From the NCBI RefSeq assembly GCF_964213995.1, contig NC_135816.1, forward strand, positions 51,522,001-51,586,000: DNA of 64,000 bases, read 5' to 3'. The position numbers and the translations under genes were made by a program. The stretch comes from Mustelus asterias. Taxonomy: Eukaryota. Of the stretch, positions 5,137 to 62,506 are shown in pieces (positions within the stretch are counted from its first letter, which is position 1; the number at the start of each line of letters is the position of its first letter). The notes under the pieces were generated by a model. That model worked only from the letters and a program-made list of their open reading frames with translations. It made no database searches and had not been told where the DNA came from.

Positions 5137-6800
5137 TATAGAAACGTAGAAACATTAAAAACTAGAAGCAGCAGTCGGTCATTTGAGCCTGTTCTGCCAT
5201 TCATTTGATCATGGCTGATCATTGAATTCAATATCCTGATCCCCTCTTCCCCCCCATATCCCTTGATCCCTTTAGTCCCGAGAGCGATGTCTAAATTCTT
5301 CTTGAAATCAGACAATGTTTTTGCTTCAACTACATTCTGTGGTAGTGAATTCCACACATTCAGCACCCTCCGGGTGAAGAAATTTCTCCTCACCTCAGTC
5401 CTAAAAGGTTTACCCCTTATCCTCAAACTATGACCCTTCCTTCTGGATTCCCCCATAATTGGGAACATTCTTTCTGAATCTACCCTGTCTAACCCTACTA
5501 GAATTTTATAAGTATCTATGAGATCCCCTCTCATTCTTCTAAGCTCCAGTGAATATACCCTAACTGACTTAGTCTCTCCTCATATGACAGACCTGCCATC
5601 CCAGGAATCAGCCTGGTAAACCTTCGCTGTACTCCCTCTATAGCAAGAACATCCTTCCTCAGATAGGAACACCAAAACTGCACACAATATTGCAGATATG
5701 GCCTCACCAACACCCTATACAATTGCAGCAAAACATCTCTATCCTCAAATCCTCCCACTATGAAGGTCAACGTACCATTTGTCTTTATTGCCTGCTGTAC
5801 CTGCCTGCTTACTTTCAGTGACTGATGCACGGGACACCTAGGTCTCATTGAGTATCCACCTCTCTCAATTCAAGTAATAATCTGTCTCCCTATTATTGCT
5901 GCCAAAGTGAATAATCTCACATTTATCCACATTATACTGCATCTGCCATGCATATGCCCACACACTCAGCCTGTCCAAATCACGTTGAAGAATCTCTGCA
6001 TCCTCCTCACAGCTCACCCTCCCACCCAACAATGTACCATCTGCAAATCTGGAGATAATACATTCAGTTCCCTCTTCCAAATCATTAATATATAATGTGA
6101 ACAACTTGGGTCCTAGCACAGTTCCCTGTGGAACTCCACTAATCACTGACTGCCAATCAGAAAAAGACCCACTTATGCCAACTCTTTGCTTCCTATCTGC
6201 TAACCAGCTTTCTTTCCACCTCAAGACATTACCTTCAATTCCATGTGCTTTAACGTTACATAGTAGCCTGTTATGTGAGACCTGGTTGAAAGCCTTCTGA
6301 AAGTCTAAATAACCCACATCCAGTGGTTCTCCTCGGTCAACTCTACTAGTTATATCCTCAAAGAATTCCAAGAGATTCGTCAAGCATAATGTCCCTTTTG
6401 TAAATCCATGCTGACTTTGTCTGATTTTATCACTGCCTTCCAAATGCTGAGTTATGAAATCCTTGATAATGGACTCTAGCAATTTCCCCAGTACCGATGT
6501 CATGCTCACTTGGTCTATAATTCCTTGTTTTCTCACTACCTCCTTTTTTGAATAGCGGGCTTACATTAAGCTACCCTCCAATCTGTAGGAACCAATCCAG
6601 AGTCCAAAGAATTTTGGAAAATAACTACCAATCGATTTACTATTTCCAGGGCCACTTCCTTAAGTACTCTGGGATGAAGATTATCAGGACCTGGAGATTT
6701 ATCCACCTTCAAACCCATCAATTTCTCCAAAACCATTTCTCTACTAACGGTGATTTCCTTCAGCTCCTCATTAAAACTTGTTTCTCTCAGAACTTCTGAT
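5137..6800 (-). mobile_element. 5'-truncated CR1 LINE (RT domain plus 3' UTR), frameshifted
   Basis: Consecutive ORFs 6566..6805, 5865..6536 (QHGFTKG, YLDFQKAF, GVPQGTVLGP, FADGT), 5531..5848 and 5136..5534. Short-repeat tail near 5140. Confidence 0.95.
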
Positions 6801-9025: not shown

Positions 9026-9075
9026 CACAGTAAGATCTCTTCTTGGAGGTGGTCTTTGTCTCATGTTTGGTAACT
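9026..9075 (-). CDS. SH3PXD2B: SH3PXD2B small exon (50 nt)
   Basis: aatacag|AGTTA...GTG|gtgagt; phase 1-0; (K)LPNMRQRPPPRRDLTV, matching the Tks4 MRQRPPPRRD motif. It restores frame between the flanking exons. Confidence 0.95.
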
Positions 9076-19001: not shown

Positions 19002-19119
19002 CTGATCTTCCACCAGCCTTCCAGGTTCTTCTGTATAACCTCCACCACTGCACCCCTTTCCAAGTCAATCTCATCATTATCTCTTGCTGAGTATGGATAG
19101 ATGACAATAAAATTCTCTT
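19002..19119 (-). CDS. SH3PXD2B: SH3PXD2B exon (118 nt): first part of SH3-2
   Basis: ttttttccag|AAGAG...ATCAG|gtgagt; phase 1-2; (E)[38 protein letters not shown](R). Confidence 0.96.
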
Positions 19120-19829: not shown

Positions 19830-20128
19830 TTATAGCTCCTGCTCCTTCTAGTATCATGGCCTTAGTGGGCATTGGCAACCATGGACTTCCATTGGATTGG
19901 TCCATGATTAGGCTTGGCAAAGTATTGCAGAGCCTAGTGCGGTATGGTTGACGAGGAAACTCTTCTGCTATTACTATCTGTCATCAGGTGTAATGGGAGG
20001 ATTTCTACAGTGATAATCAACCTCTTTAGCTACATTATAAACACGCCATCATGGTCATCAAGTCCTGAAGTGGGGCTTGAACCTGGAGCTTCTAGTCCAT
20101 AGGTAGTGACGCTGCCACTGTGCCACAA
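19830..20128 (-). mobile_element. Probable old tRNA-derived SINE (different family)
   Basis: The minus strand begins gtggcacagtggcagcgtcac...ccaggttcaagcccc (A/B-box-like). The 3' boundary is uncertain. Confidence 0.4.
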
Positions 20129-20779
20129 GGTAGCCTTTACTTTATTTCACAGGGGCAATTAGTATTTATTAAATTTAAGGGGCACCTATAATTTTAATGC
20201 TTTCTCACAGCAGTGCAAAATATTATTGCTGCTTTCCCCTGTATAAAAGAATGAATGCAATGAATTACAACTTTATTTGATAGTACATCAATTTGACTGG
20301 AACTACAGAGGGCTAGGGCAACATAACTGAGGAGTCTATTGTATGTCTATTGTAGGGAAAAGTCTTGAAGTTGGATATAGATCTGGTAAGAGAGGCATCC
20401 TGCTCAAACTTAAAAATAGTAATGCAGCTTATCAAAAGCTACTTATCTAAAGCCATTTGTTACAGGACCAAAAATGTGTGCCCTTCCACTCCTGTAATTA
20501 GTTTGGGGAAATAGTGCCTAGATGGGTTAGAAATTAGGCAAGACCTTGGATATGGTGGGTCTCATTTTGCACTGGAATTCTCTCCCAACCTTGTGGAAGT
20601 AAAGCCTTAACTTATCCCCAACAAGGTCAGCTATGTAGGGGGCCGAAGGGGGAAAGGACAGGGACATTTCACGTCAAAGGTTTCCGTGACCCTTGTTTCT
20701 TAAAGTTGGAGCATCAAGCTAGGGCAGAACTGTAGACTAGAAGGAGGTAACAAAAACAATACAAAGAGAATTCAAGATG

Positions 20780-21500: not shown

Positions 21501-21870
21501 ACAAAATGGCTTTCCTCTTCAAATAGGTCAATATCTGCTGGACAGCTAACATGACATTGTTAAGCTTACATTACAGCAAAGCATGGTTTTATGGAAAACG
21601 CCATTATAAACTGAATTGCACAGTTGTATCTATTGGATAAAAGGTTCAGCAGTCTATGAACATAGGAGAAGTAGACAAAGCTACCTTTAACTCCAGATTC
21701 TAACTGAGGTACATTGCTAATGCAAACATAAAATTACATTAAAAGAGCAAATTCTGCTAAACATGTTCATGCAAAACACGTAAATGAGACACAAGTGCAG
21801 CACATATATACATACAGCAAGCAACGACAAACACAGACTACTGTAACAGCAAGCACTTGTCTCCATCCAC

Positions 21871-21954
21871 CTTGGCCCCAAACACTGATGTACAAATCTC
21901 CTAAAGTCCGTCGACGGCCCACATGTCTTGGCAGAGACCAGAATGTCTTAGGGA
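21871..21954 (-). CDS. SH3PXD2B: Candidate 84-nt alternative (cassette) exon of SH3PXD2B between SH3-1 and SH3-2
   Basis: ttcctactccccaacatgctgtcag|TCCCT...GCCAAG|gtggat; phase 1-1, 28 codons, no stop: VPKTFWSLPRHVGRRRTLGDLYISVWGQ. Same position and length as the Tks5 insert containing RRWTLG (from memory). TGCATG lies about 100 nt downstream. Confidence 0.8.
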
Positions 21955-22880
21955 CTGACAGCATGTTGGGGAGTAGGAAGTGATCACAGAGTACAAAAAG
22001 CTCATTAATGATTCATCATGTCACTGTGATAAAATTGCTATTGTTAAAATATTAGAATGGGCAGTCAAAACTCCTGACCCATTGATAAGTAGAATCATAC
22101 TTGCAAGATGAACAGGAAATGCCCGATACATATTAAATCACATTATTTTATTCGCGAACAAGTCCCTGCGACGGATGTATTTTTAAAAAAAAATGTATTT
22201 AAAAGCATTAAGGTGACAAACTAAGTGGAGACATGATGACATCTGAATATATAGTGGCCAAGACAAATAAAACAGTACCTGTTGTTACAAAAGTCAAACA
22301 TTAAGATAAGGAAATGTTCCTTATTCTTTTGAAGTGGTTAAGTGGTTCTAGCAAAAATAATTGATTCTATAGTCTATAATCTTCCAGTCCTGCTGCTGTG
22401 AATGGGGGTTTTCCCATTGTTTGCGCACTGCGGCTGGTGGAGTGGGGGGGGGGGGGGGGGGGGGAGGGGTTGCTGTCAGCGGGATCAGAAAACGGCTGGA
22501 AAATCCTGCCCTTTGATTCAAACCTGGGTAGAAACAAACTTCCACCCTAATGCCAGTGGCAAATTTCCAAGCACTCAAAGAAAATTGCATTCCAAATTGA
22601 CAGGAGCCATTTTTATCGGATTGCTGTTTGTTTTTAAAATGTTTGAGATTACTTTTACATATTGGAGATTTGGGAATTTTTAACATCTTTAGTTTGGTTT
22701 AAGAGCATTTTTTGTGTTTCCATATAAAATATATGCTTGTACATAATGGTAGTTTGATAATATTCCAGCATTAAAAAATAAAGTGTTCATTCAGTTCCAG
22801 AGTAAAGCTAAAAATAAGCCTTTCAAGTTGTAACACAAGTATTATCTGAATACAACTCTTTGTTAGTTTTGGCTGCTTAC

Positions 22881-22994
22881 CTTCCCCTGGCTTGGCACTA
22901 ACAATTGAAAGGTCATCCTGAGCTCCATCCTGGGCCTCCAGACACGTGGCAGGGACCCAACCCTGCTCATCAGCTGTGCTCACAAACCACCATC
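22881..22994 (-). CDS. SH3PXD2B: SH3PXD2B exon (114 nt): second half of SH3-1
   Basis: gcttccag|GATGG...GGAAG|gtaagc; phase 1-1; (G)[43 protein letters not shown] is Tks4-type. Confidence 0.96.
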
Positions 22995-42537: not shown

Positions 42538-43022
42538 GGGGGCGATTCTCCAGCTCCGTGCACTCAGGTTCAAATTACATTATGGCTGGAGAATCTCACA
42601 AGAGGGGCCATTACGCGATTGGCGTCGGAGAGAACCTCTTTTGGGATTCTCCCTGCATTTACCCTCCCCGCGCGATGTAATTTGGTTTATCCCCAGTGAG
42701 GGCGTGAACCAGATTAGCAGATTCAAATCTGCATTTAAATATGCATTTCTGGATTTTAGCCAGATTCACCCGGCTCTCAGGATTAACCCAGCCCCCAGGA
42801 TTCACCGACCCGCCAACGCAACAGGTAGCCTGCAGAAGCCACTACTGGTTTCCACAAATGGAGACCAGGTGTGATGGCAATGCCAGGAGGCTCGGAGGCC
42901 ATTGGAGCTCCTGGATGGCCAAGGACATATCTTGGCATTGCACCCTGGCACTGCCAAGGGAGAAGCCATCAAGGGGCAGGGTCCAAAGTGGACAGAGTCC
43001 ATAGACAAGCTCATAGTGGGGA
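42538..43022 (+). mobile_element. Partial GC-rich MITE, truncated or interrupted by a CR1
   Basis: Terminus gggggcgattctcc; internal gcatttaaatatgc and tggagaccaggtgtgatggc motifs shared with other MITEs. Confidence 0.6.
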
Positions 43023-43746
43023 TATGCAAATGTGAGAGAACTTTGATAGGGGTACATGTTCATAGCTCTTTGAAAGTGGAGTCACAGGTGGACAGAGTGG
43101 TGAAGAAGGCATTCGGCATGCTTGGTTTCATCGGTCAGAACATTGATTACAGGAGTTGGGACGTCTTGTTGAAGTTGTACAAGACATTGGTAAGGCCACA
43201 CTTGGAATACTGTGTGCAGTTCTGGTCACCCTATTATAGAAAGGATATTATTAAACTAGAAAGAGTGCAGAAAAGATTTACTAGGATGCTACCGGGACTT
43301 GATGGATTGAGTTAGAAGGAGAGGCCGAATAGACTGGGACTTTATTCTCTGGAGCGAAGGAGGCTGAGGGGTGACCTTATAGAGGTCTATAAAATAATGA
43401 GGGGCACAGACAAAGTAGATAGTCAATATCTTTTCCCAAAGGTAGGGGAGTCTAAAACTAGAGGGCATAGGTTTAAGGTGAGAGGGGAGAGATACAAAAG
43501 TGTCCAGAGGGGCAATTTTTTCACACAGAGGGTGCTGAGTGTCTGGAACAAGCTGCCAGAAGTAGTAGTAGAGGCGGGTACAATTTTATCTTTTAAAAAG
43601 CATTTAGATAGTTACATGGGTACAATGGGTATGGAGGGATATGGGCCAATTGCGGGCAATTGGGATTAGCTTAGGGGTTTAAAAAAAAAGGACGGCATGG
43701 GCAGGTTGGGCCGAAGGGCCTGTTTCCATGCTGTAAACCTCTATGA
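43023..43746 (+). mobile_element. Young CR1 LINE 3' end
   Basis: GVHVHSSLKVESQVDRVVKKAFGMLGFI...LVRPHLEYCVQFWSPYYRKDIIKLERVQKRFTRMLPG; 3' UTR gggccgaagggcctgtttccatgctgtaaacctctatgac. Confidence 0.95.
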
Positions 43747-48685: not shown

Positions 48686-49026
48686 GGGGCCAATCTCATG
48701 AAAAATATTCTAAGTACAGAATGAGCGTGAAAATGGGAGAGTTTCGAATCTGTTTTCTTGGTGAGTCCAAATCTGGTATCTTATGCACTTAGCACAAGAA
48801 AGAAAATCCAGAAATCGGATTTCCGCCTGTAGGGGGAGGGGTTTAAATTGCCAGAAAGCTGGCTGATAGCAGCAAAGGGCGGTATTGTGCATGTGTAGGT
48901 CTTTGCTCTGAGCAGCAGAGACCTGTCACACAGCCTCTGCTGCTTTCAGCTGGCCTCCATGGCCTAAACCCAGGGTGGCCGATCACGGCCTGTCGGCCGG
49001 CAGAGCATGATGGTAAGATCGCCCCC
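48686..49026. mobile_element. MITE inserted in CR1
   Basis: Termini ggggccaatctc / ggtaagatcgccccc; flanks gct/tct; CR1 resumes tctgcctttctg. Confidence 0.75.
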
Positions 49027-49975
49027 TCTGCCTTTCTGTTTTTTCTACCAAAGTGAATAACATCACACTTGTTCACATTATATCTAATCTGCCACACTCT
49101 TGCCCATTCACTTAGCCAGTCCAAATCCTCTTGAAACCTTCTTTCATCCTCTTCACAATTCACATTCCCACTTAGTTTTGTGTCATCAGCAAATTTGGAA
49201 ATATAATGCTTGGTCCCAACATCCAAATCATTTATATAGATTGTGAACAGCTGTGGGCCAAGCAATGATCCTTGCGGTACCCCATTAATAATAGTCTGCC
49301 ATCCTGACATGGACCCATTTATTCATATGCTGTATTTCTGTCTATTAACCAATTTGCAATCCACAATAGTTTATTACCCATAGTTCTATGTGTTCTAATT
49401 TTGTTTACTGGCCTCCTGTGTGGCATCTTATCAAAAGCCTTCTGAAAATCCAAATGCACCATATCCATGGGTTCTCCTTTATCAATGCTACAAGTAACAT
49501 CTTCAAAAAAAAAAAGGACAAGTTTATCAAACATGATTTCCCTTTCATAAATCCATGCTGACTGTCCAATGATATCATTATTTTCCAAGTCCCCAGTAAT
49601 CACATCCTTTATACCAGATTTTAACTTTTTCCCTAACACTGACGTCTAACAAACAAGTTTATAGTTCTCAGTTTTCTCTCTCTCTCTTCCTTCTTAAACA
49701 GTGGGGCTACATCTGCTACTTTCCAGTCTGCAGAAACCTTTCCAGAATCCACAGACTTTTGAAAGATACCCAACAATCTCTATAGTCACCTCCTTTAACA
49801 CTCTGGAATGCAGCTCATCTAGCCCAGGGGATTTATCGGTATTTAATCCAATTATTTATTCAAGCACTACTTCGTTCTTGATACTAGTTAATTTCAGTTC
49901 ATAATTTTCACTGATCCCACAGTTCCCTAATTTTTCTGGGTGATTTTCTGTATCTTCCTCTGTGAGGACCACAAA

Positions 49976-60567: not shown

Positions 60568-62506
60568 GTTCTGTGTAACAGCTGTAATGCTTAAAAAGTA
60601 ATAACATGATGAAGTTACACATTACAATTCTGCACTGATCACAGTGTGAGTTAGATACCTTGTGTTGCAGTGAATTCCTGCTTTTTCCAAGATGCTAAAC
60701 GATATGTGTTGATACATGCAGAGACATTTTGAAATAAGTTATCATTCTCCTTGAAAACTTCTAAAGCAGCAATCAGAAATAACAGCAATTGCGCAGTTGC
60801 TTAATTTTGCACATGCCTATATTTTTGGCAAAATCCCCTTGAAACAATATATAAATGAAACTTAAATAAACTAGGCACTGTTTGAGTGAAATTTGGTATT
60901 CAAAACCTATGAACAATCAAACCGTAAAAGCAATCTCATCCCTGCTCTACCACAACTTCCTCTTGTTTTATCCATTTCTTTGGTCTTACATCATGCACCA
61001 TTTTTTGCATGTTCATGCCATTATTCCACCTTTCAAATCCAGTTTGGAGTACAGCTTCAAAACATAATTCAGTGGTTCACATACAACAATTCTGTGAAAA
61101 GTGTTGTGAAAAGAAAATTGCAGACTCAGTGATAACATGTGAGACAGACAGCTCCAAGTAACTTCTTGGATTAAGTGTAGTTTTAAATCCATTGCTGTTG
61201 AATAACCTTCTTACAGGCCACTTGTTTGCTCCAGTCAGAATGAGGTACCGTAAAATCATATTCCAGCCATGTTTTTTTTTGCTATTTTAAAATGACTAAT
61301 TACACAATGAGAGTGGCAGCAATTACATTTGCAGATGTGGCACAAAACATTTTGATTGTTCTGACGGAGAAATTTACCATCCAAGTTGTTTTGTGTCAGT
61401 GAAAAGATTAATAGATGATTACTTGAATAAAAGTGCACCTATATTAAGATTGGAAACATAAATCTTCTTTTGAAGGTGGCAGCTTTTTGAGTGAACCTTA
61501 ACCAAGAAGAAAGTTGAATGCAGTGAAAGAACATATTCAGTCCCAAATTAATCCATTTGTAATCAACAATACAAAAGGTACATGCATGAACCACACCGCA
61601 CTTAGCATTAAGCTGGCCCCCATCCACTGCCAATCAGCTGGCTGCATGGTCCAAAATCATTACAGTTCAAGACCATCCAGCAATGTTAAGAATCATTTAA
61701 GTTATGGCCAAGCGAATTTCTCTAATACCTCTCTTTAGAAACGAAGTCGTTCTCTGGATTATTGCAAGCCCTAATGAAGGAAAATGAATGAAAGTACATG
61801 TGAGGAAAATGAAATCATTTTTCTAAAAGGTTTTGAACTGAGATGTTGAGAAAGCGAACTATATACAACGTAGGAGAATTTACCCTATGCGTGTATAATT
61901 TACGGAATACAGGAATGTAAAATTCATAGCCTGTTTGCTGATCTACACATATGATACATAAGAAGTCCAAGTTATTACACGTACATCAGTTACACAGAAA
62001 CCATGTTAACTTTTTTCTCTATCAATGGTATTATGAAACACTGTTCTTAAGGGAACATGAATTTGAATTCATGTCAATGACATACATGTGCTCTAAATAC
62101 ATCAGGATTGAGTTTCAAATGACCAGTCAGAAGAACCAAACATGGGAACATGCATCTGTTGTAAAGGTTTGCCCTGCCAATAGTACCAATACTATTTTCT
62201 TTTGCTATCAGATCAACTTTTTGCTATGTTTCAGTGACTCGTTTCTGTTGAGTTGTGGCTTTATTTAAGGATTTTATGTTGTTTTGCTTTATAGTCTTAG
62301 TGCTTTTCTTTGGTGTGTTGCTCTCATTGGCATCAATGACATGGTTGGTTAGCTCATTTCTAAAGCATGGAGAAAATAACATATTTTTCACATTATGTCA
62401 CGATCCCCTAAGGTGAGGAACCAGTATATTTATGTTTTCTAATGTAATGTATTTGATTATAAGGCAAAGACCTTGTCAATGAATCTTTCCTATGGAGTCT
62501 TTATGA

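Follow-up and report, generated by a model that had tools for sequence, protein, structure and literature searches.

What does an exon of 84 nucleotides, lying between the exons for SH3-1 and SH3-2 in Tks4, do to the protein when it is included, and how old is it? Tks4 is a scaffold protein of cell invasion on which podosomes and invadopodia depend, and its mutation is found in Frank-ter Haar syndrome. The exon lies in a stretch of 64,000 nucleotides from the shark Mustelus asterias (contig NC_135816.1, positions 51,522,001 to 51,586,000), hereafter the window, the minus strand of which carries most of an SH3PXD2B gene with exons at about 61.7, 29.9, 22.9, 19.1, 10.2, 9.0, 4.5 and 1.0 kb (Table 1). 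That the host gene is SH3PXD2B/Tks4, as the earlier note had it, is borne out by a tree of 26 proteins covering the N-terminus through the third SH3 domain. The window's protein P0082 groups there with the named 2B proteins at 100/100 and has sharks and rays as its nearest relatives, while the 2A proteins form a separate group (96/96). The same tree splits vertebrates from invertebrates at 96/94 and leaves two cyclostome groups unplaced beside 2A and 2B. Both GWW triplets and the PPPRR motif are retained in the gene.

Table 1. Positions in the window of the cassette exon, its neighbours and its motifs.
Feature	Position	Strand	Remarks
Upstream exon	22881..22994	-	Second half of SH3-1 (GWW) and acidic linker; donor AAG/GTAAGC
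Acceptor region	21955..21990	-	Pyrimidine tract interrupted
Cassette exon of SH3PXD2B	21871..21954	-	84 nt, phase 1-1, 28 residues between SH3-1 and SH3-2
KTFWSLP codons	21929..21949	-	Tks4-only; like RX(F/Y)X(pS)XP, K replacing R in Mustelus asterias
RRRTLG codons	21899..21916	-	RRxTLG is the core common to Tks4 and Tks5 cassettes
Donor flank	21768..21870	-	Non-consensus AAG/GTGGAT; UG/YGCY-rich; one TGCATG at +98
Downstream exon	19002..19119	-	Start of SH3-2 as far as GWW
PPPRR exon (approximate bounds)	9026..9073	-	Tandem-SH3 autoinhibitory motif; presumed cis ligand of SH3-1/SH3-2

On the minus strand the exon (21954..21871) has CTGTCAG directly before it and GTGGAT after it. Placed between the final G of the upstream exon, which ends at 22881, and the exon starting at 19119, its 84 nucleotides give an open frame with no stops, and the translation matches the 28 residues that the earlier note had read from a stop-free AG..GT segment in frame on both sides. 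Such features alone are not above chance, because the 3761-nt intron contains 45 stop-free, frame-preserving YAG..GT candidates of 30–200 nt, one of them of 84 nt; the proof of the exon comes instead from conservation and from splice junctions. The 221-nt stretch with the exon has one copy in the genome, and a repeat search of the intron returned nothing accounting for the exon. The description of the intron as repeat-poor does not hold throughout: it fails at the dispersed repeats of positions 19830–20130 (approximately) and at a C-run at 22430–22477 in the cassette's intron. The former pieces, which lie in the downstream intron, draw many unrelated contigs. The TGCATG located 98 nucleotides past the cassette donor is presumably an RBFOX-type motif and a candidate regulatory element.

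Transcript evidence comes from a search that listed 22 sequencing runs, none recorded as RNA; eight were aligned as contigs, six of these having been chosen for containing exon words, and the three runs in which all exon words occur, large and of unknown kind, are not among the eight. The aligned runs represent three related organisms rather than the window's species, their sample tissues are coded, and the contigs tell the presence of junctions, not the level of inclusion. A junction was taken as bridged when 31 letters lay on its short side. Under this rule inclusion is seen in run X1 only, where a single contig holds both 22881>21954 and 21871>19119. Its junctions have GT-AG ends, the short side measures 84 nt, and the exon shows one mismatch. 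The skip junction, 22881>19119, is present in six of the eight runs (X2, X3, X5, X6, X18 and X20). It is the sole junction in X5, X6, X18 and X20; X3 adds 22881>21954, where the short side has only 28 letters; X2 adds 21871>19119, where it has only 18, on a contig that retains the upstream intron. All three junctions by which the exon was to be checked are accordingly found in related species, and the coexistence of inclusion and skip junctions in their transcripts gives the exon its cassette status. In X14, from another species, positions 21724–22001 are covered by one unspliced contig with no junction, at very high depth and with few differences, and most of the surrounding intron does not align; this block may be a conserved element captured by targeted sequencing.

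Conservation of the insert is widespread among vertebrates. Of 56 candidates, 54 were matched by a 40-residue query made of the peptide with in-frame residues on either side, and the insert was present in all 54 (43 named SH3PXD2B, 4 hypothetical or unnamed, 7 unnamed read-through fragments). With residues 150–312 of the zebra-shark protein as query, the best 120 of 1453 matches added frogs, a salamander, lizards, a turtle, birds, a marsupial and placentals. The resulting 131 proteins comprise 101 Tks4 proteins with the insert, 12 Tks4 proteins without it and 18 that were not counted (the query, the 7 fragments, 2 truncated proteins and 8 Tks5). Since the set of 101, which spans shark, teleosts, lungfish, amphibians, reptiles, birds and mammals, was baited with the insert and is teleost-heavy, its counts overstate independent conservation. 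Read in this way, S, P, T, L, G and the second L are found in 101/101 inserts and RRxT in 99/101. In the core, which runs from W through the L that follows D, every position but one is kept in 87–101 of the 101; in the preceding linker the range is 49–98. The Arg at −3 or −2 that is shared with the paralogue is His in two proteins, the zebra-shark one among them. Thus the insert, as the proposed check in other vertebrates required, is found across jawed vertebrates. In related species two differences from the exon were listed, one being a synonymous third-position change. The exon appears in only 1 of 24 cartilaginous-fish Tks4 models examined, and the models encoded in the window (P0082, P0297 and P0299) all skip it.

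The exon is nonetheless not hidden, contrary to the earlier note: it is annotated in species from zebra shark to mammals, and in human as exon 8a of SH3PXD2B, which gives TKS4c (NM_001445599.1). According to the accessible part of the 2026 TKS4 isoform paper (10.64898/2026.07.22.740038 / PMC13486968), exon 8a adds a 28-residue insert, TKS4c is functionally uncharacterised, and its longer linker may alter tandem-SH3 autoinhibition. The human and shark exons belong to the same gene, occupy the same position and encode 28 residues each, 19 of which are identical by eye, the shark having K-T in place of human W-R ahead of F/Y-W-S-L-P. Given a Tks4 host gene and a homologous 28-residue in-frame insert between SH3-1 and SH3-2, the shark exon is, on sequence grounds, the orthologue of human exon 8a. 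In the literature search the term TKS4c was found in the isoform paper alone, and beyond that paper nothing was found on regulation of this exon. The parts of the paper available say nothing on conservation, on a Tks5 counterpart or on phosphosites, and a statement of homology between exon 8a and Tks5 exon 10 was not found in the accessible portions of the papers searched. A 2025 survey, in the sections available, gives TKS5 alone as known to vary in its SH3-1/SH3-2 linker (PMC12730246); PMC6991978 and PMC7663256, each in its accessible part, provide context only. What is already known, then, is the exon itself, catalogued as TKS4c in human and in many vertebrates, together with the proposal of a linker effect. 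Useful additions, neither of them found in print, are the common descent with Tks5 exon 10 and the analysis of the motifs. Because the exon was already catalogued, what is gained is a framework for its evolution and a motif that can be tested, and not a new kind of element.

The Tks5 locus of this genome (G000:C164) carries an 84-nt AG..GT exon of phase 1-1 at 571741–571824, between the same two exons. Aligned without gaps, the two cassettes agree at 44 of 84 nucleotides, a value that none of 200000 codon shuffles reached, and at 8 of 28 residues (p about 0.003); for comparison, the upstream exons of Tks4 and Tks5 agree at 78 of 114 nucleotides. The suggestion that the exon is shared with the SH3PXD2A cassette is thereby upheld, by place, phase, length and a similarity above chance. 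Tks5 (SH3PXD2A) exon 10 is like the Tks4 cassette in place, length, phase, bounds of the flanking exons and the pattern V..R..RRxTLG, and it separates the long-linker from the short-linker isoform (Q5TCZ1-3) of Tks5. It is unlike it in residue identity, low as this is within one genome. The commonest residue is the same in the 101 Tks4 and 18 Tks5-type inserts at V1, R4, R10, R14, R15, T17, L18 and G19; what the paralogous inserts share is mainly RRxTLG. The acceptor ends are also alike, CATGCTGTCAG in the Tks4 cassette (21955–21966, minus strand) and CATGCTTGTAG in the Tks5 cassette (G000:C164, approximately 571729–571740, plus strand), which is possibly an ancestral splice signal.

A profile search for homologues (150 representatives) yielded a Tks5-type insert in lamprey (P0137) and hagfish (P0138), and hagfish P0285 carries it too; in the other cyclostome paralogue the insert was not seen. 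The matching Tks5 exon and the Tks5-type insert of cyclostomes provide good support for an exon older than the split between Tks4 and Tks5. Models from amphioxus, a hemichordate, Ciona and an anemone have a short linker. A gain on the vertebrate stem appears likely from these comparisons, the dating being weak because skip forms could hide the exon in the invertebrate models. The splicing defaults of the paralogues appear to be opposite, Tks5 mostly including and Tks4 mostly skipping. In mouse, exon 10 of Tks5 is mostly included, as reported in the accessible part of PMC4178035; from the exon order, that exon would be the 28-residue cassette.

What inclusion would do to the protein may be approached from the linker. 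The insert, of net charge +4, falls within an acidic linker, and the measured linker stretch passes from 22 residues (net −6) on skipping to 50 residues (net −3) on inclusion. Human Tks4 requires both SH3 domains to bind its own PPPRR motif (PMC8348221, accessible part), and only the short-linker isoform of Tks5 tandemizes (section 3.4 of PMC12730246, as available, citing Rufer 2009). By analogy with Tks5 and human Tks4, the two SH3 domains of the skip form would together bind PPPRR-type ligands, such as the protein's own autoinhibitory motif, p22phox and Sos1. In the inclusion form, if Tks5 is a guide, SH3-1 and SH3-2 would stop acting as one binding unit. PPPRR-type binding would then be weaker, autoinhibition loosened, tandem-only ligands dropped and the molecule more open. 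We consider it reasonably probable that this is a mostly skipped Tks4 exon whose inclusion puts a basic 28-residue insert in the acidic linker and thereby uncouples the two domains. A known relation is the tandem-SH3 (super-SH3) module of the p47phox family; p47phox itself opens via phosphorylation of its autoinhibitory tail, whereas the splice choice in Tks4 would alter the linker itself.

Two considerations qualify this reading. The Tks5 result need not transfer to Tks4, because the inserts differ in 20 of 28 residues. Moreover, the near-invariant sequence exceeds the needs of a spacer, so that the effect may not turn chiefly on the length of the linker. Such strong constraint suggests a second role for the insert, which, from its conservation, may double as a phospho-regulated short motif. 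It would consist of R/K-x-F/Y-W-S-L-P, specific to Tks4 and a putative 14-3-3 site, and of the RRxTLG found in both paralogues.

RRxT(L) is a PKA-type basophilic kinase consensus. The RRxTL of the insert fits it and provides a candidate phosphosite. Ten residues upstream of the RRxT threonine stands a serine found in Tks4 only. In 99 of the 101 inserts this serine has a basic residue at −3/−4, an aromatic one at −2 and Pro at +2; in Mustelus asterias position −4 is K and position −3 is T. This segment comes close to the 14-3-3 motifs RSX(pS)XP and RX(F/Y)X(pS)XP, as given in the accessible part of PMC2860806, and is a predicted site. As the serine and the threonine are 11 residues apart, counted inclusively, and 15 are needed, one 14-3-3 dimer cannot hold both. 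Human Tks5 is listed, with its site unmapped, in three data sets of 14-3-3 capture, from all of which Tks4 is absent (accessible part of the PMC3411107 supplement); the Tks5 captures are only consistent with a putative site in the insert.

Alternatively, the insert could mainly dock a kinase-dependent reader, either 14-3-3 on the serine or a phosphothreonine reader, for example an FHA domain, on T-L-G-D, the longer linker being flexible enough to leave the coupling of the SH3 domains largely intact. We regard this as doubtful, although it survives better than any other rival. FHA domains prefer pTxxD, and TxxD occurs in 100 of 101 Tks4 inserts, the threonine never being replaced by serine. Docking would also fit the constancy of the serine pattern and its resemblance to the 14-3-3 motifs, and a site held in common beside a second one confined to a single paralogue is reminiscent of the lynchpin pattern. 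However, the equally long insert of Tks5 is reported, second-hand and in the accessible part of PMC12730246, to prevent tandemization, and the Tks5 insert has neither the serine site nor the Asp at +3; furthermore, no mapped phosphosite for the insert was found in the literature.

Structure prediction bears on a further alternative, an improbable one, in which the insert folds back on SH3-1, adds or exchanges a beta strand and so disables this domain directly. AlphaFold was run once per form, with low confidence, on 97-row alignments (mean pLDDT 54) and with skip and inclusion queries that are moreover unlike in species and in their PX-linker cassette. Compared with 1WLP/7YXW, the rmsd was 8.7 Å for the skip form and 12–22 Å for the inclusion form, super-SH3 geometry being present in neither of these low-confidence models. 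Fold searches did not tell the two isoforms apart, and a predicted complex between the insert and the SH3 pair of the skip form, with a score of 0.01, carries no weight either way. In the inclusion model, insert residues 228–231 form a strand (block pLDDT 66) while the first strand of SH3-1 falls below 50; the skip model, made with a matched alignment, has this first strand folded and scores 93–95 over the remainder of SH3-1. The near-invariance of F/Y-W-S-L-P would agree with such a fold-back. Yet these are single models of mismatched queries, and W-S-L-P is absent from the Tks5 insert. Because the insert does not resemble the first strands of SH3 domains (score −9 as against 7–17 for four native strands; best window p 0.54), fold-back is kept as a minor rival.

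It is very unlikely that the insert serves as a basic patch that binds acidic membranes or directs nuclear import and that RRxT switches off: a net charge of +4 in an acidic linker and a still more basic Tks5-type insert would suit this role, but a simple charge patch would not be expected to have hydrophobic and Gly positions that never vary. Least credible is splicing noise that lacks a role in the protein and is maintained by elements acting at the RNA level, for which the weak donor, the single annotation among the 24 shark and ray models and the unspliced coverage in X5 and X6 might speak, but against which stand the preservation of length, phase and peptide in both paralogues and all the way from sharks to mammals, and the synonymous nature of one of the two listed exon differences.

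Uncoupling of the two SH3 domains thus remains the preferred reading, and conservation from sharks to mammals, together with the common origin with Tks5 exon 10, argues that TKS4c is functional. A more ambitious scenario, which we put forward tentatively as possible, is that an exon gained in the vertebrate ancestor, older than the paralogue split, converts a tandem-SH3 clamp into an open, kinase-controlled linker for 14-3-3 docking; both paralogues would have kept RRxT, Tks4 would have added its own site and the splicing defaults would have become opposite. If this is true, cells would adjust the scaffolding of invadosomes and of NADPH oxidase through splicing together with phosphorylation. 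The accessible parts of the biochemical and cell studies of Tks4 that were consulted describe the skip form; the conserved residues of the insert mark which ones to mutate first.

Other features of the locus deserve mention. The SH3-1/SH3-2 linker of cartilaginous-fish Tks4 (proteins P0081–P0126) is as long as that of Tks5, and the linker of bony-vertebrate Tks4 is three to four residues shorter than in sharks and rays. A second Tks4 cassette exon of 42 nt and phase 1-1 (61729–61770, minus strand) lies between PX and SH3-1 and encodes an RxxSF-type segment; it is present in some shark and ray models and missing from others, and it occupies the site of the other alternative insert of Tks5. Versions of 36 nt occur in teleosts, a lizard and birds, with none among the mammal and amphibian 2B proteins listed. 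Finally, the introns contain LINE-like open frames at approximately 5140–6560 (minus strand), 42875–43666 (plus strand) and 48846–49645 (minus strand), which we take to be fragments of CR1-type LINE reverse transcriptase.
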